DNA of 27,459 bases from an uncultured Oscillospiraceae bacterium (GTDB lineage: Bacteria; Bacillota; Clostridia; Christensenellales; Aristaeellaceae), in NCBI GenBank assembly GCA_964483645.1, contig CAZACG010000002.1, forward strand, positions 1 to 27,459. Reading direction: 5' to 3'. A model generated the notes under the pieces. That model was given only the letters and a program-made list of their open reading frames with translations, did no database searches and was not told the DNA's origin. Positions 1-13,824 of the stretch are shown piece after piece. A program made the translations under genes and the position numbers. The first letter of the stretch is position 1. Every line of letters starts with the position of its first letter.

Positions 1-1230
1 AGGCTGATCTGCGAGAAGGAACGCATTCGCCGCTTGCCGACGCAGTACCCATGGGACAGAAAAACTGCGCTGCTCAAGCTTCAGGAGCTTGCGCCGAAGG
101 CGACGAGCGAGGATTTTGAACGTTTGGAGCTGGCGGGCTGGGTGGATTTCATCTATATCGGGGGCGAAAAGCGTTACTTTGTGCGTTTTCATCGTAGTCT
201 GCTCAAAGCCGGCCTGCTGAGGGATGTGACGGAGGAAACGCCTAATCCCAAGAACGATTGGCTCGATCCGATGATCGCGCAGATTCGGGAGAAGGGCAGT
301 CTTACTCGGCGCATCACGCTGGATGTGAGCCTGAGCGTTGATCGGGAAGCATTTGTGCCGGGCGAATATTTAGTGCATCTGCCGTTTCCCGCAGTGTCGG
401 CGCAGCAGAGCGATATTGAGCTGATTTCAGGTGATCCGGATGGTGTGGGGGCGGAGAAAGCGCCTGCGCGTACGCTCTGGTGGAGACGCAGGCTGGATGC
501 ATGGCAACCCTTCAGCGTCCGTTACAGCTACACCAGCCGCATTCGCTATGCCGATCCGTTGCACAAGGAGGCTCCCGAGGAGGCGCTGTATCCCGGCGAA
601 GAGCCGCCCTGTGTGGAGGATTTGTCCGAGCGCGGCGCATATCTGCGCTTCACGCCGTATCTGCGAGCGCTGGCGGCCGAGCTGACGAAGGACGAGAACG
701 GCGATGTGGGTAAGGCTTGGAAAATATACGAATTCGTCACCACGAAAGTCAAATACGCCTTCGTGCGCGATTATTTTCAGTTTGACGACCATGGCGAATA
801 CTGTGCGGTCAACCTCAAGGGCGATTGCGGCTTGCAGGCGTTGTTTTTTATCATCCTCTGCCGCATCAGCGGGATTCCCGCACGCTGGCAAAGCGGCATG
901 GCGGTGGAGACGGATTATACAGGCGCGCACGACTGGGCGCAGTTCTATTTGAAGGGATGGGGCTGGTTGTTTGCGGATTGCAGCTATGGCGGCAGCGCGT
1001 ATCGCGCGGGCAATTCAATCCGGCATCAATTCTACTTTGGCAATCTTGACCCCATGCGCATGGTCGCAAACAGACAGTATCAGGCTGAGCTTGAACCGAA
1101 GAAGCAGGCGCTGCGTGCGGATCCCTTTGATAATCAGTCCGGCGAGATGGAGTGCGTGGGCGCGCCGCTGCCCTTTACCTTCCGACAGCTTGATTGCGAC
1201 GCGACGCTTGTATCCTACCGGGACCTGTAA
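1..1230 (+). CDS. Transglutaminase-like superfamily (papain-like Cys-His-Asp) protein, 5'-truncated by the window edge
   Basis: Frame is open from base 1 (RLICEKERIRRLPTQYPW...), so the TTG at 34 is probably internal. Motifs GDCGLQALFFIILCRISGIPARW (Cys), GAHDWAQFY (His) and WLFADCS (Asp) match the transglutaminase-like core. Confidence 0.85.
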   Translation, partial: RLICEKERIRRLPTQYPWDRKTALLKLQELAPKATSEDFERLELAGWVDFIYIGGEKRYFVRFHRSLLKAGLLRDVTEETPNPKNDWLDPMIAQIREKGSLTRRITLDVSLSVDREAFVPGEYLVHLPFPAVSAQQSDIELISGDPDGVGAEKAPARTLWWRRRLDAWQPFSVRYSYTSRIRYADPLHKEAPEEALYPGEEPPCVEDLSERGAYLRFTPYLRALAAELTKDENGDVGKAWKIYEFVTTKVKYAFVRDYFQFDDHGEYCAVNLKGDCGLQALFFIILCRISGIPARWQSGMAVETDYTGAHDWAQFYLKGWGWLFADCSYGGSAYRAGNSIRHQFYFGNLDPMRMVANRQYQAELEPKKQALRADPFDNQSGEMECVGAPLPFTFRQLDCDATLVSYRDL

Positions 1231-1402: not shown

Positions 1403-3268
1403 ATGAGGAAGATTCTGGCTCTTGCGCTGTGCATGATGCTGATGATGGCCGCCGGCGTGACGCCCGTTATGGCCGAGGAAGCTTCTGCTTATCGCACGCT
1501 GTACTCGGGTGAAATCACCTCCCTCAACTACCTGACCACCTCGACGACGAACGAGTTTTCTCTCGCCGCCAACGTCATTGATACGCTGGTGGAGTATGAT
1601 AAATTCGGTCAGGTTCAGCCCTCTCTGGCGGAGAGCTGGGAGTATGACGCGGAAAATCTGACCTATACCTTCAAGCTTCGTCAGGATGCAACGTGGGTGA
1701 GGGCGGACGGCAGCGTCTATGCCAACGTGACCGCGCATGACTTTGTTTCTGCGGCCAAGTATGTGCTTGATGCGCAGAATGCATCCGCAACTGCCAATAT
1801 TTTCTATTCTGTCATCAAGGGCGCCGAGGATTACTATCTGGGTACCAGCACTCCGGAGGAGGGACAGGATCCCTATCCCGTGATGGATTGGGAGACGGTC
1901 GGCGTGAAGGCGATTGACGACTATACCCTCCAGTATACGCTCGTTGAGCCGGTGCCGTACTTCCTGTCCATGGTGACCTATGTCTGTTTCATGCCGGTGA
2001 ACGGTGACTTCCTCGCCGAAAAGGGCGCGGACTTCGGCGTGGCGACCAGCAATGAAAACATCCTCTATAACGGCGCATATGTGCTCTCGACCTTCGAGCC
2101 GCAGCAGAAGCGCATTTACACCAAGAATGAGGCGAACTGGGACGCCGATAACGTGTTCATCACGACCATCGAGCAGACCTATAACAAGGAATCCACTACC
2201 ATCTCTCCCGAGCTCTTCAGGCGTAATGAGGTGGACGACGCTTCCATCGACTCCACCATCGCTGCGGAATGGCTTGCCAACGAGGAGACTGCCGATCTGA
2301 TTCGACCGATCCGTCAGAGCGGCTTCTATACCTATTTCTATGCCTTCAATTTCGATCCGCAGTTTGATGCGGCGTATGAGCCTGAAAACTGGAAGCTCGC
2401 CGTCAATAACGTGAACTTCCGCAGGTCGATCTATGCCGGTATGGATCGCGTTAAGGCGATGCTGATTACCGAGCCGGACAATCCGGAATCCATCATGTTC
2501 AACACGGTGACGCCGCCGGAATTCGTTTCCATTGACGGTGTGGATTACACCGAGATGGGACCGCTGGCTGAGATCACGGCAAAGGGCGTCGATACCTTCA
2601 ACGAGGAAGAGGCGCTTGCCTACAAAGCGAAGGCTATGGAAGAACTGACCGCAGTCGGCGCGACCTTCCCAGTCAAGATCCTGATGTGCTACAATCCGTC
2701 CTCGACCGGCTGGGCTGAGGAGTGCGTGGTTGTGGAGCAGCAGCTTGAAGCACTGCTGGGCTCGGATTACATTGACATCATCGTTGAAGCGGGCCCGTCC
2801 TCCGGCTTCCTCAGCGAGGTTCGCCGCTCCGGAAAGTATGCGCTCATGAAGTGCAACTGGGGCCCGGATTATGCCGACCCGAGCACCTATACCGGCCCGT
2901 TCTATGACGCTGACTATAACTGGCCGGAGCTGGCGACCGAGTATCTGGATGCCGAGGGCAATTCCGAGTACTACAAGCTGGTTGACGAGGCAAACGGCAT
3001 TACCGATGATCTGAAGGCTCGTTATGAGGCGTATGCGAATGCCGAGGCGTTCCTGATCAATAACGCCATTGTGATTCCGTTTGGCTATGGCAACGGCGGT
3101 TATACCGCTTCCCGTCTCAATCCGTTTGAGAGCCAGTTTGCTCCGTTCGGAATCTCCAACGAACGCTACAAGGGTCAGAAGCTGCTTGATGCGCCGATGA
3201 ACACCGATCAGTACTTCGACGCGTATGATCAGTGGATCGATGAGCGCGCTGAGTTGGCCGGCGAGTAA
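1403..3268 (+). CDS. oppA: Oligopeptide ABC transporter substrate-binding protein (family 5, AmiA/AliA-like)
   Basis: 621 aa; signal peptide ending VMA-EE; family 5 signatures DTLVEYDKFGQVQPSLAESWE, YTFKLRQDATW, VKAIDDYTLQYTL, WGPDYADPSTY; first gene of a permease-permease-ATPase-ATPase cluster. Confidence 0.93.
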   Translation: MRKILALALCMMLMMAAGVTPVMAEEASAYRTLYSGEITSLNYLTTSTTNEFSLAANVIDTLVEYDKFGQVQPSLAESWEYDAENLTYTFKLRQDATWVRADGSVYANVTAHDFVSAAKYVLDAQNASATANIFYSVIKGAEDYYLGTSTPEEGQDPYPVMDWETVGVKAIDDYTLQYTLVEPVPYFLSMVTYVCFMPVNGDFLAEKGADFGVATSNENILYNGAYVLSTFEPQQKRIYTKNEANWDADNVFITTIEQTYNKESTTISPELFRRNEVDDASIDSTIAAEWLANEETADLIRPIRQSGFYTYFYAFNFDPQFDAAYEPENWKLAVNNVNFRRSIYAGMDRVKAMLITEPDNPESIMFNTVTPPEFVSIDGVDYTEMGPLAEITAKGVDTFNEEEALAYKAKAMEELTAVGATFPVKILMCYNPSSTGWAEECVVVEQQLEALLGSDYIDIIVEAGPSSGFLSEVRRSGKYALMKCNWGPDYADPSTYTGPFYDADYNWPELATEYLDAEGNSEYYKLVDEANGITDDLKARYEAYANAEAFLINNAIVIPFGYGNGGYTASRLNPFESQFAPFGISNERYKGQKLLDAPMNTDQYFDAYDQWIDERAELAGE

Positions 3269-3279
3269 TTTGAAGAAAA

Positions 3280-3334
3280 AGACACGATAACAACGCCCGG
3301 GCGGCTGGTTGTGCCGTCCGGGCATCACGTGTCT
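3280..3334 (+). terminator. Strong stem-loop after oppA (mRNA stabiliser or partial terminator)
   Basis: GCCCGGGCGGC (3295-3305) / GCCGTCCGGGC (3313-3323) with one G-U pair, extended by AGACACG (3280-3286) / CGTGTCT (3328-3334); no clean poly-U tail. Confidence 0.6.
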
Positions 3335-3530
3335 ATTGCTGAAGCCGCCGGTTAGACGGCCTTGGCTTTGTTTGATGGGGATAAGGCTCGCGTGTGCCTG
3401 TTCAGAGAAGGACCGGTGAAGTCGGCGAGATGGCTTTTTCTCCAGATGCAGTTGACTGACTGAAGAAAAATCCATTTCGCACCAGTTGTTCATCCATTAT
3501 TCATCAATACCCATTTGTCGCTAGAAGGTT

Positions 3531-4481
3531 GTGAATTGCATGCTCAAGTATACGCTCAAACGACTCTCTTCATCCATTGTCACGTTGCTGATCATCATTA
3601 CGGTGGTCTTTGTACTGCTGCGTCAGATGCCGATTGAAGGCTATTTTGATAACTTTGAAAAAGCGGATCAGGCGACCATTAATGCGAAGCTCAATCAGCT
3701 TGGTCTTAATGATCCGATGCCTGTTCAGCTGTTAAATTTCTTGCAGAAAATGTTCAAGGGCGACCTGGGGACTTCCGCAAGATACAGCGTGGGGGCGCCG
3801 ATCGCTGAGATCATCGCCAAGAAGGCGCCGATCTCCATCAAGCTCGGTCTGCTGTCCATGGCGCTTTCCATGATGATGGGCATCCCGCTGGGTGCGGCGA
3901 TGGCGCTTGGAAAGGGCAGGTTTTGGGATAAGGTCGGAACGGTTTTTATTGTATTCATCAACGCCGTGCCGGCCGCCGTTTATCATATTTTCATTCAGAT
4001 GTATGGCACAAGCTTTATGGGCATTTCCATGCTGTTTGATGAGGCTCAATGGACGACGTGGATTTTGCCCGTGTTCTCCATGTCCCTGGGCAATACGGCT
4101 TATTATGCCATGTGGCTGCGCCGCTACATGGTTGACGAGATGAATAAGGATTATGTGCGCCTTGCTCGCGCCAAGGGCGTCAGCAGCCGCAAAATCATGA
4201 TGAAGCATGTTTTCCGCAATGCTTTTGTGCCGATGATTCAGTACATCCCGTCGTCGCTGCTGTATACGATATCCGGCTCGATCTACATTGAATCGCTTTA
4301 TTCGATTCCGGGCATGGGCGGCCTGTTGGTGGACGTCATCGGTCGACAGGATAATCCGATGGTTCAGGCGATTGTCATGATTTATAGCTGTATAGGTATT
4401 GTGGGTCTGCTGCTGGGCGATTTGCTCATGGGCGTCATCGATCCGCGCATCAGCTTTGTGAAGAAGGAGGGGGCGCGCTGA
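3531..4481 (+). CDS. oppB: Oligopeptide ABC transporter permease
   Basis: LLRQMPIEGYF, GDLGTS, EAA-type loop DYVRLARAKGVSSRKIMMKHVFRNAF, C-terminal DPRI. Start is GTG 3531 or ATG 3540. Confidence 0.93.
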   Translation: MNCMLKYTLKRLSSSIVTLLIIITVVFVLLRQMPIEGYFDNFEKADQATINAKLNQLGLNDPMPVQLLNFLQKMFKGDLGTSARYSVGAPIAEIIAKKAPISIKLGLLSMALSMMMGIPLGAAMALGKGRFWDKVGTVFIVFINAVPAAVYHIFIQMYGTSFMGISMLFDEAQWTTWILPVFSMSLGNTAYYAMWLRRYMVDEMNKDYVRLARAKGVSSRKIMMKHVFRNAFVPMIQYIPSSLLYTISGSIYIESLYSIPGMGGLLVDVIGRQDNPMVQAIVMIYSCIGIVGLLLGDLLMGVIDPRISFVKKEGAR

Positions 4482-4482
4482 T

Positions 4483-5907
4483 ATGTTGAGCATCATGGAT
4501 AAAAAAAGCGAAAAGCTTGAAAGAGCGCTTGAGGAGCGGCTTCATGCAGAGCTGAGTAATGAGGAAGAAATCCATGAGGACGAGCTTTTTGTGCTCGCCG
4601 AGTATGACGAAGCGGCTGCCGAAAAGGGCGGTTATTCGAACTACTCGTACTGGCGCAGCACGTTTCAGGTGTTTTTGAAGAATAAGGTGGCTGTGCTGCT
4701 GGTTTTTGTGCTGCTTGCGCTGCTTCTCTTTACGTTCTTGCAGCCCTATCTGCCGGGACAGTATCCGGCGAATCTGATTAACAATCATCCTCAAACCGGC
4801 AAGCAGCTTTCCAATATCGCGCCGAGCCTGACGACCGTGCTGGCGACGGTGGAGGCAGATACACAGCTAATGGCCAGCTCGATTGAGGGAGACGATGAAT
4901 GGCTTGCCGTTCATAACATGCTGGACACGCTTCAGGCGCGTACCAAGTTTACCATTGTGGAGTATGGTGAGCAATGGTGCAAAATCGAGTATAAGGACAT
5001 CACGGGCTATGTCAAAAACAACTTCCAGACGAAGCTGAAGCTGCCGGAGGATCCAACCTTGGTTCCTTATGAGAGCCGCTCCAACTTCAAGCTGGATGTA
5101 TATATGCAACCGATGGATTATACCAATAACGGCACATCCCTGTATGCGAAGGCAGACAGCCTGACGATGCAGGAAGATGGGATGGCCGTCGCTAAGGAGA
5201 AAACGCAGCTGCGCATTCTGCCCAGCGAGCATGCCTTTTGGTTTGGCACGAATAATATCGGTCAGGATCTGTGGGCGCGTGTGTGGAGCGGAACGAGAAC
5301 GAGCCTTGTGATCGGCTTCTTGGTTGCCTTTTTCGAAGCGCTCATTGGCATCACGGTCGGCGTGCTCTGGGGTTACGTGCGCAAGCTCGACCGCATCCTC
5401 ACAGAGGTCTACAATGTGGTGGATAATATCCCCAATACGATTATCCTGATTCTAATTTCTTATATCATGAAGCCGGGCATGCGTACGCTGGTTTTTGCCA
5501 TGTGCTTGACCGGATGGTTGGGCATGGCGCGCTTCATCCGTAACCAGATCGTCATTATCCGTGACCGCGATTATAACATGGCCTCTCGCTGTCTGGGCAC
5601 CAATACGCGGCGCATCATCATGAAAAACCTGCTCCCCTATCTGGTGTCCGTCATTACCCTGCGTATGGCGCTGGCTATCCCGGGTGCGATTGGCAGCGAG
5701 GTGTTCATCACCTATATTGGTCTGGGTCTGCCGGTGGATATCCCGTCGCTGGGCAATCTGATTAACGAAGGACGCAAGCTGATCACCTCGGCTGCGCTTC
5801 GCTATCAGCTGATCTTCCCGGCGATCGTGCTGTCCATTGTCACCATTTCCTTCTATATCATCGGCAATGCGTTTGCAGACGCCGCCGATCCGAAGAATCA
5901 TCTGTAA
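4483..5907 (+). CDS. oppC: Oligopeptide ABC transporter permease with a large extracytoplasmic insertion
   Basis: YWRSTFQVFLKNKVAV N-terminal motif, WFGTNNIGQDLWARVWSGTRTSL, EAA loop DYNMASRCLGTNTRRIIMKNLLP; 474 aa, longer than a typical ~300-340 aa OppC. Confidence 0.92.
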   Translation: MLSIMDKKSEKLERALEERLHAELSNEEEIHEDELFVLAEYDEAAAEKGGYSNYSYWRSTFQVFLKNKVAVLLVFVLLALLLFTFLQPYLPGQYPANLINNHPQTGKQLSNIAPSLTTVLATVEADTQLMASSIEGDDEWLAVHNMLDTLQARTKFTIVEYGEQWCKIEYKDITGYVKNNFQTKLKLPEDPTLVPYESRSNFKLDVYMQPMDYTNNGTSLYAKADSLTMQEDGMAVAKEKTQLRILPSEHAFWFGTNNIGQDLWARVWSGTRTSLVIGFLVAFFEALIGITVGVLWGYVRKLDRILTEVYNVVDNIPNTIILILISYIMKPGMRTLVFAMCLTGWLGMARFIRNQIVIIRDRDYNMASRCLGTNTRRIIMKNLLPYLVSVITLRMALAIPGAIGSEVFITYIGLGLPVDIPSLGNLINEGRKLITSAALRYQLIFPAIVLSIVTISFYIIGNAFADAADPKNHL

Positions 5908-5923: not shown

Positions 5924-6967
5924 ATGGAAAATACGCCTATTCTTTCGGTTCGCGACCTGAATATCAAGTTTAACCTCCGCGGCCGCAAATTGCATGCCAT
6001 CCGCGACGTATCTCTGGACCTTTATAAAGGCGAGAGCCTTGCCATTGTCGGAGAATCCGGTTCGGGAAAATCCGTGTTTGTCAAGAGCTTCATGGGTTTG
6101 CTGGATGCTAACGGATGGGTGGAAAGCGGCGAGATTCTGTATCATGGCGAGGATTTGACCCAATACACGACCGAGAAGCAGTGGCTCAAGGTGCGCGGCA
6201 AGGAAATTGCGATGGTGCTTCAGGATCCTATGACCAGCCTGAACCCGCTGAAAACCATCGGTGCGCAGATCCTCGAGGCGATTGAGCTGCATCAGGGTTT
6301 GCATGGCGAAACGGCACGCAAGGAGATGATCTCCGTGCTCAACGATGTGGGCATTACCGATCCGGAGCGCCGTGCCAAGCAGTACCCGCATGAGTTTTCC
6401 GGCGGTATGCGTCAGCGTGTGGTGATTGCCATCGCCGTGGCATGCAGGCCGCAGATTCTGATTTGCGACGAACCGACCACTGCGCTGGATGTGACCATTC
6501 AGGCGCAGATTCTCAGGCTGATCCGCTCCCTCAAGGAGAAGTATGAGCTGACGACCATCTATATCACGCATGATCTGGGCGTTGTCGCCAACGTTGCAGA
6601 TCGTATCGCAGTCATGTATGCGGGCGATATTGTGGAGATCGGCTTGTGCGAAGAGGTTTTTTATCAGCCGAAGCATCCTTACACATGGGCGTTGCTTTCC
6701 TCGCTGCCGCAGCTGGGCGTGAAGGGTGAGCCGCTCTATTCCATTCATGGCACGCCGCCGAACCTCTTTTTGGAGGTCAAGGGTGATGCGTTTGCGCCGC
6801 GCAATCCCAAGGCGCTCAAGATTGACTTTGTGAAGCGTCCGCCGTACTTTGAAGTATCGCCGACGCACAAGGCGCGGACATGGCTGCTTGATCCCAGAGC
6901 GCCGAAGATCGAGCCGCCGGAGGCTGTTCAGAAGCTGGCAACGGAAGGAGTGAAGGGCTATGCATGA
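5924..6967 (+). CDS. oppD: Oligopeptide ABC transporter ATP-binding protein
   Basis: Walker A GESGSGKS, signature FSGGMRQR, Walker [13 protein letters not shown]-terminal [10 protein letters not shown]. Confidence 0.95.
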
Positions 6968-7895
6968 GAACAGGGAAGTCCTTCTGTCCGTCAAGGACAT
7001 GTCCATCTGCTTTGGCAAGGGCAAGCATCTGTTTAAGGCGGTGGACAATGTCAGCTTTGACATCTACAAGGGCGAAACGTTTGGTCTGGTGGGCGAATCC
7101 GGATCGGGCAAAACCACGATTGGTCGTGCGATCATTCGAATCAATCCGACGACGTCCGGCGATGTGATTTTCAAGGGCGAAAAGATCAACGGAAAGATTT
7201 CCAAGGAACTGGATCGCCGTGTGACCCGTGAGATTCAGATGATCTTCCAAGATCCCATGGCTTCGCTCAATGAGCGCGCCAAGGTTGATTATATCGTTTC
7301 CGAGGGACTGTACAGCGGCGGGAAGCTGCCGGAGGAGGAACGCAAGCGCAGGGTGGAAAAGGCACTTGAAGAGGTTGGTCTGCTGCCGGAGTTTGCTTCT
7401 CGCTTTCCGCACGAGTTTTCCGGCGGCCAGCGTCAGCGCATCGGCGTAGCGCGTGCATTGATTATGCAGCCGGACTTCATCATTGCCGATGAGCCGATTT
7501 CTGCACTGGACGTGTCCATTCGTGCGCAGGTGCTCAATCTGCTCAGCGAGCTGCAAAAAGAGAGGGGCTTGACCTATCTCTTTATCTCCCACGATCTGTC
7601 CGTGATGCGCTTTATCTGCGATCGCATCGCCGTCATTCATAAGGGCGTTCTGGTCGAGCTGGCGCAGACGGAGAAGCTCTTTGCGCATCCGCTGCATCCC
7701 TATACCCGCGCGCTGCTCTCGGCGATTCCACTGCCCGATCCGGCGAGGGAGAAGAATAAGAAGCTGGAGGTTTATGACCCCTCGCAGCACGATTATTCCG
7801 TGGACAAGCCGCGCTGGGTGGAGATTGAGGAAGGTCATATGGTTTGGGGCAACGAGCGGGAACTCCATACATATCGTGACATGCTCAAGGCGTAA
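6960..7895 (+). CDS. oppF: Oligopeptide ABC transporter ATP-binding protein
   Basis: Walker [42 protein letters not shown]; overlaps oppD by 8 nt. Confidence 0.95.
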
Positions 7896-7935: not shown

Positions 7936-8030
7936 ATTCCTATACGATCAGAAAAATAATGATTAATCAGACTGGGTATAAACCGCCCAAATCAATCAGA
8001 AAGCTAAATGGCATGAGAGGAGCATGCGAT

Positions 8031-9176
8031 ATGAATATCTCCTACGAAGAAGCGATTTCCCGTTGCTGGGCCGAGGTCGATCTTTCCCGGCTTGCGCTTA
8101 ATTACCGCAATGCGCGTGCGCATCTTTCCGAGAAAACGCAGCTGATCTGTGTGCTCAAGGCGGATGCGTATGGGCTTGGATTGCCTGCGGTTGCGGCATG
8201 CCTGTGGAAAGAGGGCGCGCGGATGTTTGCTGTCGCCTCGTTTAACGAGGCCGCGCAGCTTCGGCGTACGCTGCCTCAAAGCGAAGCGCTTATTCTGGGG
8301 CTGGCGGGGGAATGCCAGCTTGAACGCGCAATCCGTGAAGGCATGCTGCTGACGGTGTTTTCGCAAGCCTATGCTCAAACGGTCGCGCGCGCGGCGCAGC
8401 GCGTGGGCTGTAAAGCAAGGGTGCATGTGAAGCTGGAGACGGGTCTCAATCGGCTCGGACTTGATCACCAAGAGGCGGCGAGTGCGATTGAGCGGATGCA
8501 AGAGAGCGGCTGGATGAAGATTGAGGGCCTGTTTACTCATCTGGCGCTGCGCAACGAGGCTTCGGATCGCAGGCAAATCGACCTGCTAAAGGCGTGCAGG
8601 GAGGAACTGCGCGCGCGCGGTATTGAGATTCCTATGACGCATGCGCTGGACAGCATTGGCATGGTGCGCTATCCGCAGGAGCATATGGATGCCGTGCGAA
8701 CAGGAGCATGGCTCTATGGCGTATATCCGCGTGGATATGCGCATCCCGAGGAGAGTCAGCTGGCGATGACGGTTAAAACGCGGATCGCGCAGCTGCATCG
8801 CGTGCAGGCCGGGGAATGCCTCGGCTACGACGAGACGCATCCGATTCAGCGTGACAGCGTGATCGCCACGCTCTCGGCGGGCTATATCGACGGCTATCCG
8901 CGCCTGAATAGCTGTGGAGAGGTTGAGATTCGCGGAAAACGTGCGCCGGTGGTAGGGCTTGTATGCATGGATCAGATGATGGTGGATGTGACCGATATCC
9001 CCGATGTGCAGGCCGGCGATGTGGTGACGCTGCTTGGCGGCGGAATCGGCGTGGACGAGTATGCCGCATGGGGCGGCCTGAACCGAAATGAGTCCCTCGC
9101 GCGAACTGGCAAGCGTGTGCCGCGTGTGTATCTGGAAGAGGGAAAGCGGGTAGGCGTTGTGGAGATGCTGGAGTAG
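8031..9176 (+). CDS. alr: Alanine racemase family PLP enzyme (Alr/VanT-like)
   Basis: ATG 8031 follows GAGAGGAG. PLP-lysine motif VLKADAYGLG (K43), HVKLETGLNRLG, EGLFTHLA, catalytic Tyr in CLGYD (Y266), GYIDGYPR, VCMDQMMVDV, RVPRVY. Confidence 0.9.
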   Translation: MNISYEEAISRCWAEVDLSRLALNYRNARAHLSEKTQLICVLKADAYGLGLPAVAACLWKEGARMFAVASFNEAAQLRRTLPQSEALILGLAGECQLERAIREGMLLTVFSQAYAQTVARAAQRVGCKARVHVKLETGLNRLGLDHQEAASAIERMQESGWMKIEGLFTHLALRNEASDRRQIDLLKACREELRARGIEIPMTHALDSIGMVRYPQEHMDAVRTGAWLYGVYPRGYAHPEESQLAMTVKTRIAQLHRVQAGECLGYDETHPIQRDSVIATLSAGYIDGYPRLNSCGEVEIRGKRAPVVGLVCMDQMMVDVTDIPDVQAGDVVTLLGGGIGVDEYAAWGGLNRNESLARTGKRVPRVYLEEGKRVGVVEMLE

Positions 9177-9243
9177 GACGCGATTCAAGGCGCGAAGACG
9201 AAAGAAATATCCGGAACAAGACACATTCCCGGGAGGAATCGAC

Positions 9244-10416
<1,173 letters not shown>

Positions 10417-10426
10417 GGAGGAGCCT

Positions 10427-11365
10427 ATGCTCAAGGGAAAGAAACTGCAAACGGGGGATACGATCGGCTTGATCGGTCCATCGGGCGCCGTGCGTACGGA
10501 GGGTGCGGTTGAGCGCGCCGTCGAATATGCCAAAGGGCTGGGCTTTCAGGTGAAGCTTGGCGAGAGCGCTCATGCGCGCTATGGCTATCTTTCCGGCACG
10601 GACGAGGTGCGCGCGCGCGACGTTAACGCGATGTTCGCAGACCCGCAGGTGGACGCGATCGTTTGTACACGAGGCGGCTACGGCACCATGCGCATTCTGG
10701 ATATGCTGGATTATGATGTAATTCGAGCCAATCCGAAGATCTTTGTCGGATTCAGCGATATCACCGCGATGCATATTGCCTTTTTGGAAAAGGCAGGACT
10801 GGCGACCTTCCATGGGCCGATGGCGACGGGCTGGAACGATGAATTCCCGGATGGATTTACGCAGAAAGCCTTTTATGACGCGGTGATGAAGGCGGAGCCG
10901 CTGGGTGCGCTGAATAACGCGCAGGGCTATCATGAGCGGAAGACCGTCAACGCGGGAAGCGCGGAGGGGTTGCTTGTGGGAGGCAATTTGTCGCTGATCG
11001 CCGGAACCATCGGAACGCCGTATGAGCTGGATACCAAGGGACGCATCCTCTTTATCGAGGAAATCGGCGAGCGCACTTACTGTGTGGATCGCATGCTGAC
11101 TCAGCTGCGTCTGGCTGGGAAATTCAATGATTGCGCGGGAATTGTGTTTGGCGATTTCAATGACTGCCCTGTGGAGTATCCGGAATTCGGGCTGACGCTG
11201 GAGGAGGTCATTCGCGATATCGCCGCGCCGTGCGCGAAGCCGATCTTTACAGGCCTTCAGGCAGGACATGTCTCGCCCAAGCTGACGCTGCCCTTAGGCG
11301 TACGCTGCGGGATGGATGCCGATGCCTGCACCTTAACCGTGCTGGAGGCGGCTGTTGAGCCATAA
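10427..11365 (+). CDS. S66 family LD-carboxypeptidase (LdcA/YkfA/MccF-like)
   Basis: RGGYG, nucleophile motif GFSDIT, GGNLSL, FIEEIGE (Glu), AGHVS (His); no signal peptide, so cytoplasmic; 10 nt after the M20 gene. Confidence 0.92.
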   Translation: MLKGKKLQTGDTIGLIGPSGAVRTEGAVERAVEYAKGLGFQVKLGESAHARYGYLSGTDEVRARDVNAMFADPQVDAIVCTRGGYGTMRILDMLDYDVIRANPKIFVGFSDITAMHIAFLEKAGLATFHGPMATGWNDEFPDGFTQKAFYDAVMKAEPLGALNNAQGYHERKTVNAGSAEGLLVGGNLSLIAGTIGTPYELDTKGRILFIEEIGERTYCVDRMLTQLRLAGKFNDCAGIVFGDFNDCPVEYPEFGLTLEEVIRDIAAPCAKPIFTGLQAGHVSPKLTLPLGVRCGMDADACTLTVLEAAVEP

Positions 11366-11400
11366 GCCGGGGGAAGGCGTGCCGGTGCGAAGTGTGGTTA

Positions 11401-11430
11401 TTGACAGGAAAAACATCAGCATTGTACAAT
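11401..11430 (+). promoter_or_regulatory. Sigma-A promoter of the CotH-family gene
   Basis: TTGACA (11401-11406), 18 bp, TACAAT (11425-11430). Confidence 0.7.
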
Positions 11431-11469
11431 AAATACATAATAGTTATCCTGATGGACGGAGGAAAAAAC

Positions 11470-13824
11470 ATGAACCGTATCGGATTAAGGCGCATTCTTC
11501 AGTTCCTGCTGCCGAGCGCTGCGTTGTTTTGGACGATGCTGTTCGTCATGCCGTGCGCGCTGGCGCAGGAGAGTGCTGCTGAGCAGGGGCTTGTCTTCAG
11601 CGAAGCCCAGAGCAATAACGATACGGAATGGGCATTGGGCTTTCGGGATTATGTGGAGCTGTTTAATGGCTCGGACAGCGTCGTGATGCTCTCGGATTAT
11701 TTTATCTCGCGCACAGAGGAGGAGCCCTTTGCATGCCATCTGCCGGCCGTCGAATTGCAGCCCGGCGCGTATGCGCTTTTGATCTGCGACGTAGATTTGC
11801 TGGATCTGCGTCTGCCCAAGGAAGGCTGTAAGCTGTATCTGACGCATCGGGACGGAGCACTTGCTGACGCGGTGGAGCTTCCAGCGATGGAAAATAATGT
11901 CTGGCAGGCGGGGCTTGGACTCACGCAGTCCCCGTCTCCGGGCTATCCCAATACCGCGGAGGGCGCGGCGGCTTATCGCGCGTCTCTTGAACAGACGCTG
12001 GTCATCAGCGAGGTGATCTCCTCCAACAGCAAGCTGCTACCGAAGGATGAGGAATATAACGACCTGATTGAGCTGCAAAATATCACGGACGGCGCTATTG
12101 AGCTAGGGCAATACTATCTTTCGGATAAGAAGAGCATGCCGTTTATGTATAGGCTGCCGGACGTGACGCTTGAGGCGGGCGAATGCTATGTGGTGCAGGC
12201 CTCGGGCCGAGAGGCAGAACACGAAGCGCCCTTCAAAATTTCTGCCACGGGAGAAGCGATTTATCTCAACGACGTCAATGGCGTGTGCGTGGATGCAATG
12301 TATGTTCCGGAGCTGACGCCCAACACTTCGTATGGCAGGAGCGAAGACGCCGCGGCGTTTTACGATATTCCGTCGATGGGCGAGCCAAACCCTAAAGGCG
12401 CGCAGGGAATCACGCAGACCCCGCAGGCCAGTATTCCAAGCGGCCCGATGAGCGGGATTGCCGAAATCACGCTGGACGGCGAAGGTGCGATTTACTATAC
12501 GCTCGATGGACGAGTTCCGACCGAAAAAAGCGCACGCTACGACGGAAGGCCGATCGTCATAGAGCAGAGCGCCGTGCTGCGCATCCGCGCGCTGGCGCAG
12601 GACAAGCTCTGGTCCTCCACAAGGACGTATCACTACCTGTATGATGCGGAAAAATACGAGCTGCCGCTCCTGTGCATCAGCGCGCAGCCGGGCGGCATCT
12701 TCGGCGTCAACGGCATTTACACCAACTGGGAAGCGCGCAATCTGGAAGCTCCGATCAATCTTGCGTTGATTGAAGAGGGCGAGGAGAAATTCAGCGTAGA
12801 TTGCGGTCTGAAAATCCACGGACAGGGAAGTCGTGCGCTGGATAAAAAGAGCTTTCAGGTGCGCTTTCGCAGCAAGTATGGTTGCGGCAGGCTGGAATAT
12901 AAATTATTTGAGGATGTTTCGGTCGCATCGTTCAACGCGCTGGTGCTTCGCAGCGGTTCAGAGGATGCGGACCGCGCTTTTTTTCGTGATGAATTTCAGA
13001 CGTCGCTGACGGCGCAGACCATGCCGGAGGTGCTCTATCAGGCGAATCGCCCGGTCAATCTGTTCATTGACGGCGAGTATTTCGGGATCTATTACATCCG
13101 CGAGCGTGTGACGGATTCCTTCGCAGCCTCTCATTTGGGCGGCACGGAGGAGGACATTGACATGGTCAAAGGCTGGAAAAATGAAGAACATGGCAGCCGC
13201 AAGGATTGGATATCCCTGATGACCTACTGCAAGAACCATGATCTCTCTATCGAAGAGAATTATCGGCACGTGGCCAGTCAGATTTCTCTGGAAAGCTTTA
13301 TGGATTACTATATCGCGCGCGCCTACACGGGAGATCGTGATTACCCGAATATCCGCCATGTGCGCAGCCGCGGAGGCGATGGGTTGTGGCGGCTTGTGAA
13401 TTTTGATTTGGACTGGGGCTTCGGCACGCAGCCGGCATCCTTCAGTCAGATGATCGGCAAGGCAAGCGAGACCTCCGGACTCAATACCGTGGTGATCAAT
13501 GCGTTACTGGAGAATGCCGGCTTCAAGGATCAGATGCTCACGCGCATGGCATGGCATTTCAATCATACCTACGCGCCGGAACGCGTGCTTGCGCATCTGG
13601 AGAGCATGTATGAAGAGGTCAAAAACGACATGCGCTATAACCACGAACGATGGCGTTTAAGCTATGAAAAATGGGAATGGCATGTGCAATTCCTGCGTGA
13701 TTTTGTGAAAAACGAGAAAACGGATCGCGTGGCGACCATGGTGCAGAGTGCAAAGCGCGCCTTCCGCCTGAACGATGAGGAAATGACACATTATTTCGGA
13801 AATCTCTATGTACCGCAGGAATGA
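11470..13824 (+). CDS. Secreted CotH-family atypical kinase with lamin-tail-like domains and a CHB_HEX_C/Fn3-like linker
   Basis: ATG 11470 follows GGAGG; signal peptide ending ALA-QE. Two LTD-like repeats (VFSEAQSNN...DYVELFN; VISEVISSN...DLIELQN...YYLSD), then IYYTLDGRVPT, and kinase region KIHGQGSR, KKSFQVRF, LVLRSG, YFGIYYIRERV, NFDLDWGF. Confidence 0.82.
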   Translation: MNRIGLRRILQFLLPSAALFWTMLFVMPCALAQESAAEQGLVFSEAQSNNDTEWALGFRDYVELFNGSDSVVMLSDYFISRTEEEPFACHLPAVELQPGAYALLICDVDLLDLRLPKEGCKLYLTHRDGALADAVELPAMENNVWQAGLGLTQSPSPGYPNTAEGAAAYRASLEQTLVISEVISSNSKLLPKDEEYNDLIELQNITDGAIELGQYYLSDKKSMPFMYRLPDVTLEAGECYVVQASGREAEHEAPFKISATGEAIYLNDVNGVCVDAMYVPELTPNTSYGRSEDAAAFYDIPSMGEPNPKGAQGITQTPQASIPSGPMSGIAEITLDGEGAIYYTLDGRVPTEKSARYDGRPIVIEQSAVLRIRALAQDKLWSSTRTYHYLYDAEKYELPLLCISAQPGGIFGVNGIYTNWEARNLEAPINLALIEEGEEKFSVDCGLKIHGQGSRALDKKSFQVRFRSKYGCGRLEYKLFEDVSVASFNALVLRSGSEDADRAFFRDEFQTSLTAQTMPEVLYQANRPVNLFIDGEYFGIYYIRERVTDSFAASHLGGTEEDIDMVKGWKNEEHGSRKDWISLMTYCKNHDLSIEENYRHVASQISLESFMDYYIARAYTGDRDYPNIRHVRSRGGDGLWRLVNFDLDWGFGTQPASFSQMIGKASETSGLNTVVINALLENAGFKDQMLTRMAWHFNHTYAPERVLAHLESMYEEVKNDMRYNHERWRLSYEKWEWHVQFLRDFVKNEKTDRVATMVQSAKRAFRLNDEEMTHYFGNLYVPQE

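Follow-up and report, generated by a model that had tools for sequence, protein, structure and literature searches.

Folded accessory domains in the extracytoplasmic loops of ATP-binding cassette (ABC) importer permeases are rare, and the P2 loop of MalF is the textbook case. This Ig-like domain lies between transmembrane helices (TM) 3 and 4, by the docking site of the substrate-binding protein (SBP) of a type I importer, and binds its partner MalE throughout the transport cycle (PMC6906923). In the related peptide importers, structures of the E. coli DppBCDF and DppABCDF complexes place the TM1-TM2 regions of both permeases in the periplasm, and that of DppB carries a 'scoop motif' that inserts into the cleft of DppA (PMC12136057). 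Here we analyse a stretch of 27,459 nucleotides from an uncultured Oscillospiraceae bacterium of the order Christensenellales (positions 1 to 27,459 of contig CAZACG010000002.1, assembly GCA_964483645.1; hereafter the window), which encodes an Opp-type peptide importer whose permease OppC holds, between TM1 and TM2, an insert of 133 amino acids (aa) with a predicted bacterial SH3 (SH3b) core. Like MalF P2, this insert would be a folded extracytoplasmic domain in a permease loop by the SBP docking site, but it is of the SH3b rather than the Ig-like type, it sits between TM1 and TM2, and its binding to the SBP is only weakly predicted.

The closest described relatives of the SH3b core are the SH3_3 repeats of wall hydrolases and surface proteins (for instance 2kt8, 2kyb and 2kq8, and the endolysin of phage phiSM101, 4krt), with which it shares the motif G-x-x-W-C-K-[IV]-x-Y-x-G-x-x-G-Y-V, reciprocal profile matches and, in the case of the OppC insert, an all-beta model. 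These repeats form tandem arrays on secreted hydrolases, whereas OppC has a single copy (two in some relatives) inside a permease loop. With respect to gene content, the nearest parallel is the dppABCDE-ykfABCD locus of B. subtilis, which also encodes a peptide ABC importer together with an S66 LD-carboxypeptidase and enzymes acting on D-amino-acid peptides. YkfB is an enolase-superfamily epimerase, whereas the window has a racemase of the pyridoxal-phosphate-dependent alanine-racemase family, and an M55 gene is absent from it. In B. subtilis the SH3b domains are carried by the peptidase YkfC (SH3b-SH3b-NlpC/P60), where one of them contributes to the recognition of murein peptides by their free L-Ala end (PMC2954226), and not by the permease as in the window. 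Finally, an extracellular SH3b-like module has been noted in TagH, the nucleotide-binding subunit of the B. subtilis transporter TagGH (PMC11466899). TagH thus also combines a subunit of an ABC transporter with an SH3b-like module outside the cytoplasm, but the transporter is a teichoic-acid exporter, and the module is appended to the C-terminus of the ATPase subunit, after an extra TM helix, and is not inserted into a loop of an importer permease.

The oppC gene of the window (4483..5907, + strand) encodes a protein of 474 aa with an OppC_N domain (PF12911, aa 55-95, E=1.3e-8) and a BPD_transp_1 domain (PF00528, aa 289-471, E=6e-24), and the NCBIfam OppC models (E=7e-99) match it in two stretches, one on each side of the insert. 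It shares with the solved OppC/DppC permeases (8z21, 8j5q, and E. coli DppC 8z1v) the OppC_N TM1, the BPD_transp_1 core and an operon with oppA, oppB, oppD and oppF, and its transmembrane domain (TMD) aligns with theirs at E 1e-30 to 1e-20; the difference is that these structures have ~10-18 residues where the window OppC has ~157. Against E. coli OppC (8z21_B), residues 46-91 align to chain positions 15-60 and residues 249-472 to positions 79-301, leaving ~139 extra residues, and the same two-part alignment is obtained with M. tuberculosis OppC (8j5q_C). TM1 (aa 68-88, 4684..4746, + strand), with a hydropathy peak of 2.89 at aa 69-87, aligns with TM1 of 8z21_B, and the core TMD with TM2 to TM6 (5227..5907, + strand) aligns with E. 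coli OppC residues 79-301 at E=1.2e-30.

The borders of the insert can be placed to the residue. The last residue of NIAPS is aa 115 and the first of EHAFWFGTN is aa 249, so that positions 4828..5226 (+ strand) correspond exactly to aa 116-248, with TLQARTKFTIVEYGEQWCKIEYKDITGYVKNNF inside. An insert-less paralogue from a genome of the same genus (locus L020) reads ...MLKNQPPS-STFWFGTN... across the same region and gives the exact junction. The oppC insert is an exact 133-aa insertion with respect to both the same-genus paralogue and the solved OppC proteins, and the ~133 additional residues that an earlier reading of the sequence alone had placed between NIAPS and EHAFWFGTN are borne out by the paralogue junction and by the E. 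coli and M. tuberculosis alignments. In neither of these two OppC proteins nor in the closest insert-less paralogue is the TM1-TM2 loop long enough to hold a folded domain. An assembly chimera, a pseudogene or a chance origin of the insert are ruled out by intact reading frames in >50 genomes and by purifying selection. Some matches lie in open frames of 600-740 aa, which were checked for extra domains and represent in-frame upstream read-through in GC-rich DNA rather than longer proteins. OppC also has a long acidic cytoplasmic N-terminal extension preceding TM1 (aa 1-67, window 4483-4683) with a predicted helix at aa 4-26; this extension is a conserved feature of the family, and the insert-less paralogue has one too.

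Concerning the identity of the insert, the Pfam profile SH3_3 (PF08239) matches OppC at aa 146-179 with E=4.5e-5 for the whole protein. When the insert is taken in isolation the match reaches E=5.5e-6 with 26.9 bits. The gathering score being 27, it falls short by 0.1 bit, so that this copy differs from known SH3_3 domains in scoring just below the Pfam threshold. The SH3b signature recognised in the sequence-only reading is thereby upheld, and the profile search proposed there extends it to the family, since SH3_3 is matched by 59 of 60 aligned insert-family members at E<=1e-3 (best 4.2e-9) and SH3_4 by 35 of the same 60. A database search with the insert retrieves 247 protein clusters, nearly all of them OppC proteins of 471-481 aa that are 60-72% identical across the insert, and many insert-bearing OppC proteins already carry the PF08239 tag, assigned automatically, in databases.

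We then find the same relationship in the reverse direction. A profile of the insert family, searched against 1.84 billion representative proteins with a threshold of E<1e-3, gives 724 matches, four of which are OppC fragments; all the other matches scanned are tandem SH3_3 proteins with the repeat G-x-x-W-C-K-x-x-Y-x-G-x-T-G-Y-V, several of them joined to Glucosaminidase, SpoIID, NlpC/P60, LysM or Big_2 modules. These tandem proteins are retrieved at E-values down to 8.6e-43, with ~17-24 bits per repeat. The best profile matches of the insert among PDB sequences are the C. perfringens SH3b domains 2kt8, 2kyb and 2kq8. The SH3b assignment of the insert core is solid, and rests mainly on sequence evidence.

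The insert can be divided with high confidence into one SH3_3 module, predicted to be a barrel, a very conserved proline-containing linker and a less conserved beta-rich part. The SH3b core (aa 127-180, 4861..5022, + strand), supported by the SH3_3 profile, the PDB profile matches and the family profile search, carries the motif YGEQWCKIEYKDITGYV. It is followed by the nearly invariant linker NFQTKLKLPEDPTxVPYESRSNF (aa 181-203, 5023..5091, + strand) and by the C-terminal part (aa 204-248, 5092..5226, + strand), which is predicted to form strands. In an AlphaFold2 (AF2) model of aa 104-256 the region is all-beta, with a predicted local distance difference test score (pLDDT) of 76.8 overall and 74-91 in the core block; seven strands extend to aa ~178, followed by the low-confidence linker (pLDDT 54-63) and by five short strands.

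The structure prediction called for in the sequence-only reading returned an all-beta fold, but its superposition on known SH3 domains did not go beyond weak similarity. Foldseek gives no match of the insert model at E<=0.001 in PDB or BFVD. With the VIA aligner, model residues 42-85 superpose on SH3 and SH3b domains over ~40-45 residues with Z 2.5-3.4 and a root-mean-square deviation (rmsd) of 1.7-2.5 A, below the level that is meaningful for this method. A discontinuous set of model residues (53-56 residues within 11..139) superposes on the cell-wall-binding domains (CBDs) of Listeria phage endolysins (6s3y, 6hx0, 1xov) at Z 5.3-5.5 and on the permuted SH3 domain 1tuc at Z 5.6, both below the noise level of the aligner. 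The Listeria CBDs (PlyPSA, CBD500, CBDP35) are built of two SH3b-like barrels interlocked by swapped strands, and no PSA_CBD match was found in the insert by the Pfam scan. The C-terminal beta-rich part and the strand at aa 119-123 may combine into a second, small beta subdomain, and a second nested, discontinuous SH3-like barrel is only a lead offered by the model. A feature search in the ESM-Atlas with aa 116-248 is uninformative (scores of at most 0.75), and the structure search in the same Atlas returns only the OppC cluster to which this protein belongs (TM 0.75) and weak matches to SH3_3-bearing hydrolases. The AF2 model of full-length OppC is poor (pLDDT 58, from a shallow alignment) and says nothing on how the insert packs against the TMD.

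Two segments containing TQL had been taken as a hint of an internal repeat or permutation. This idea is rejected at the sequence level, as hhalign comparisons of the SH3 core with the C-terminal part and with the 'outer' strands detect no repeat (E 0.25-0.5). Duplication has occurred at another scale: in OppC variants of 548 aa from JGI metagenome contigs (P0012, P0018 and P0040) the unit of SH3 plus linker is tandemly duplicated, giving two SH3b modules in the loop. We also observed that the SH3 core plus linker (model 40-110, window 4861-5091) superposes on an engineered SH3 domain fused to its proline-rich ligand (2jmc) with Z 4.6 and an rmsd of 3.4 A over 67 residues, the linker being of low pLDDT. 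This weak match hints that the conserved LPEDPxxxPY segment of the linker may lie in its own SH3 groove in cis, which would explain why linker and SH3 are duplicated together.

No hydrophobic segment occurs in the insert, which is preceded by TM1 (aa 69-87) and followed by TM2 (aa 276-294). Because the TM1-TM2 loop is periplasmic in the solved Dpp and Opp structures, the insert is, by homology, extracytoplasmic and beside the face on which the SBP docks; the extracytoplasmic placement given in the sequence-only reading is borne out in this sense.

The insert is under purifying selection. In a comparison of 11 orthologues, the insert as a whole has a ratio of non-synonymous to synonymous substitution rates (dN/dS) of 0.28. 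Within it the SH3 core reaches 0.22, the linker 0.065 and the C-terminal part 0.52, and the TMD has 0.13; these values are approximate as dS is close to saturation. The linker is thus the most constrained element of the insert, tighter even than the TMD. Among 60 insert sequences with 62-95% identity to that of the window, 44 columns are invariant. As for distribution, the full insert is present in 10 of 24 other genomes of the same genus, and in 50 of 200 sampled genomes, representing 21 of 72 genera, of one family of the Christensenellales; it is found in none of 286 sampled genomes from 41 other families of this order. The insert-bearing proteins bear source names such as 'Candidatus Ventricola sp.' and 'Christensenellales bacterium'. 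The order-wide sample had suggested a fusion limited to one or two genera, which the denser sampling of the family corrected. The SH3b-OppC fusion is old, patchy, restricted to one family and selectively maintained. No description of it was found in the literature (searched as OppC with SH3, SH3b with ABC permease, and SH3_3 with BPD_transp_1), which agrees with the sequence-only reading, the automatic database tags nonetheless. What appears to be new is the combination of SH3_3 with OppC; the OppC and SH3_3 families themselves are already known.

The insert-bearing permease is encoded in a complete opp operon. The oppA gene (1403..3268, + strand) codes for a family-5 SBP of 621 aa (SBP_bac_5, E=2.5e-46), followed by oppB (3531..4481, + strand; 316 aa; BPD_transp_1 E=3.6e-35, BPD_transp_1_N E=1.9e-8), whose product has an N-terminal periplasmic region of the scoop type, by oppC, and by the ATPase genes oppD (5924-6967, + strand) and oppF (6960-7895, + strand), both with ABC_tran and oligo_HPY domains. 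Upstream lies a gene of the Transglut_core family with a cysteine-protease fold (1..1230, + strand; E=1.9e-17), truncated at its 5' end by the edge of the window; its full-length orthologue (457 aa, locus L010) has no signal peptide, and the protein is therefore predicted to be cytoplasmic. Downstream are genes for an alanine-racemase-family protein (7959-9176, + strand) and an M20 amidohydrolase (9157-10416, + strand), both assigned by Pfam and NCBIfam, and for an S66 LD-carboxypeptidase (10427-11365, + strand; LdcA model, E=6.7e-56). No NlpC/P60 gene for a gamma-D-Glu-diamino-acid endopeptidase of the YkfC type is present at the locus, where the upstream position is occupied by the cytoplasmic Transglut_core protein.

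Such a gene complement points to a context of salvage of murein-derived or D-amino-acid peptides. The order transglutaminase-like gene, oppABCDF, alanine-racemase family, M20 and S66 LD-carboxypeptidase is that of the genus, with the part from the transglutaminase-like gene to the racemase gene kept in nine same-genus genomes, and the synteny of the opp genes around insert-bearing oppC holds in nine same-genus and ten other-genus loci. Further genes in divergent members encode an M55 D-aminopeptidase, a DD-peptidase-type protein of PF00144 and an S58 peptidase. In another genus (G319; L019 1943-4446), a protein with five PG_binding_1 domains and a SpoIID protein are encoded directly upstream of oppA, and a racemase downstream. 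The locus of the two-SH3 variant P0018 has the same murein-peptide-type operon, and the OppA encoded there is still ~80% identical to that of the window. Across ten further genera, a racemase homologue is adjacent in five, the flanks are unrelated in four and one locus is cut by a contig end. In three genera (L031 11076-12161, L033 8198-9277, L035 11098-12165) the racemase-family gene directly follows oppC with no intervening oppD or oppF; these transporters must have their ATPases encoded elsewhere or borrow them. In one insert-bearing genus (L037 5310-6407), the gene directly upstream of oppA encodes a protein of 365 aa with three SH3_3 repeats. The best NCBIfam match of the window's racemase is the catalytic model of VanT-type serine racemases (285 bits, under the cut-off of 460), while the general alr model is matched above its own cut-off (254 bits against 168); the enzyme may thus act on a substrate other than alanine.

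Concerning the OppA protein, its signal in the window is of the signal peptidase I (SPase I) type, ending …TPVMA before EEAS, and lacks a lipobox. The sequence-only reading had suggested, as one of two options, that the insert tethers a non-lipidated OppA. The absence of a lipobox stands, and extends to the orthologues, whose signals are all of the SPase I type (10 N-termini compared), but the rationale fails. The OppA proteins of three insert-less operons (L020, L021 and L022) have SPase I-type signals without a lipobox as well, and the OppA of the insert-bearing G319 system has a lipobox-like SSFAC; because of these cases the insert does not track the absence of a lipid anchor on OppA, and a correlation between the two is rejected. 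Several Opp operons of the family (loci L007-L016 and L020-L022) have OppA signals ending …PAAA or …PALA before E, without lipobox, whether or not the insert is present. Non-lipidated OppA proteins raise the question of how the binding protein is retained in a presumed monoderm.

What, then, might the SH3b insert bind? We tentatively favour peptidoglycan-derived material held beside the translocator, in line with the capture of wall fragments proposed in the sequence-only reading, because the SH3 core is most closely related to wall-targeting repeats, because the genes of the operon speak for murein or D-amino-acid peptides, because tandem duplication of SH3 plus linker is typical of wall-binding repeats of the avidity type, and because the OppA beside a two-SH3 OppC has hardly diverged from that of the window. 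The SH3b module would then be a peptidoglycan-recognition element on the translocator of an Opp system for murein-derived or D-amino-acid peptides. It would bind wall fragments bearing stem peptides, or nascent and turnover material near the membrane, and hold substrate or transporter where murein peptides are released; the soluble OppA would load the peptides and deliver them to OppBC, and after import they would pass to the enzymes encoded alongside, namely the LD-carboxypeptidase, the M20 hydrolase, the racemase-family enzyme and the transglutaminase-fold peptidase, for processing. Given the position of the loop, contact of the insert with docked OppA is also likely, and the two roles are mutually compatible. 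A bolder version, which we regard as unlikely, is that the permease carries its own peptidoglycan-fragment receptor, concentrating stem-peptide fragments at the mouth of the importer and handing them to the non-anchored OppA, much as a carbohydrate-binding module might serve a glycosidase. Several points weigh against wall-fragment binding. SH3b homology does not in itself specify a ligand, and the fold matches of the model are weak (Z at most 5.6). The strongest constraint falls on the linker and not on an obvious SH3 surface. The murein-peptide gene context is not universal, the flanks being unrelated in four of the further genera, and the insert-less operon L022 likewise has M20 and racemase homologues downstream. 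Moreover, given the dimensions of the Gram-positive envelope, the mature wall of a monoderm may be out of range for a domain only a few nm above the membrane, which would make soluble fragments the more realistic ligand.

The insert might instead be a docking platform for OppA like MalF P2, keeping the unanchored protein at or near the translocator and not binding the wall, which we consider possible though rather doubtful. The TM1-TM2 loop that holds the insert is on the SBP-docking face, its pseudo-symmetric counterpart in DppB is the one whose scoop motif enters DppA (PMC12136057), the folded P2 loop of MalF provides a precedent for continuous SBP binding (PMC6906923), the OppA orthologues all have SPase I-type signals without a lipobox, and the invariant linker of low pLDDT resembles an interface segment. 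Prediction of a complex between OppA (residues 25-621) and the insert adds weak support, with a median score of 0.56 (0.56, 0.65 and 0.00) against a best control of 0.00, a partner pLDDT >=70 and runs that agree in at least 0% of their contacts. Calibration of this method on 80 solved complexes and 110 mismatched pairs gives 58 and 2, respectively, that reach the mark; a score <=0.60 with the mark reached was seen for only 7 of the 80 solved complexes and for both passing mismatches, and by this calibration a prediction in that range is more often wrong than right. Moreover, the lack of a lipobox is not specific to insert-bearing systems (L020 to L022, and SSFAC in G319), tandem duplication of SH3 plus linker with an essentially unchanged OppA fits poorly with a precise docking geometry, and the nearest SH3_3 relatives target the wall. 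Binding of another envelope polymer or protein (a teichoic or secondary wall polymer, an S-layer, or a secreted hydrolase), by which the SH3b module would localise the transporter without handling substrate, appears distinctly unlikely: the extracellular SH3b-like C-terminal domain of TagH (5bnd, Z 3.0) and the Listeria phage CBDs (6s3y, 6hx0, 1xov; Z 5.3-5.5), which bind cell walls, are among the structural matches, and proteins with three SH3_3 or five PG_binding_1 domains are encoded upstream of oppA in L037 and G319, respectively, but all these Z-scores fall under the level that is meaningful for the aligner and no specific partner gene is conserved across the family. Finally, a domain without ligand, neutral or of structural value only and tolerated in a permissive loop, would fit the patchiness of the insert within the family (50 of 200 genomes), the fast evolution of its C-terminal part (dN/dS 0.52) and the lack of an insert in the closest paralogue, on the assumption that this paralogue functions without it; yet the insert has been kept in intact frame over 21 genera, its SH3 core (0.22) and above all its linker (0.065, tighter than the TMD) are under strong purifying selection, and 44 columns are invariant among 60 sequences, all of which makes mere decoration very improbable.

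Two further features of the window lie within or next to the operon. A strong GC-rich hairpin is found at window 3280-3334, just 3' of the oppA stop codon in the gap between oppA and oppB (3269-3530), with an 11-bp stem (GCCCGGGCGGC/GCCGUCCGGGC) nested within a longer one; the 274-nt region at the hairpin has a folding energy of -100.1 kcal/mol (z=-3.7 against shuffles). As no T-run follows, it looks like an intercistronic stabiliser or an attenuator rather than a canonical terminator. Directly after the S66 gene, a protein of 810 aa (11392-13824) combines a lamin-tail domain (LTD), Fn3-associated/CHB_HEX_C domains and a CotH kinase-like domain.

The SH3b-OppC fusion would represent a second example, unrelated to MalF P2, of a folded extracytoplasmic loop domain in an ABC importer permease. 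The readings of the insert as a binder of wall fragments and as a docking site for OppA can both be tested directly with a soluble domain of 15 kDa. If the insert docks OppA, it would show how a monoderm keeps a non-lipidated binding protein at its transporter. If it were a fragment receptor of the permease's own, type I ABC importers would have a new accessory principle and gut Clostridia a dedicated means of scavenging murein peptides. An SH3b domain of the wall-binding type has been long retained in OppC of gut Clostridia (21 of 72 sampled genera), often encoded together with enzymes for murein or D-amino-acid peptides, and if it does bind peptidoglycan fragments, substrate capture would be linked directly to the translocator and murein-peptide scavenging would emerge as a nutritional niche in the gut.

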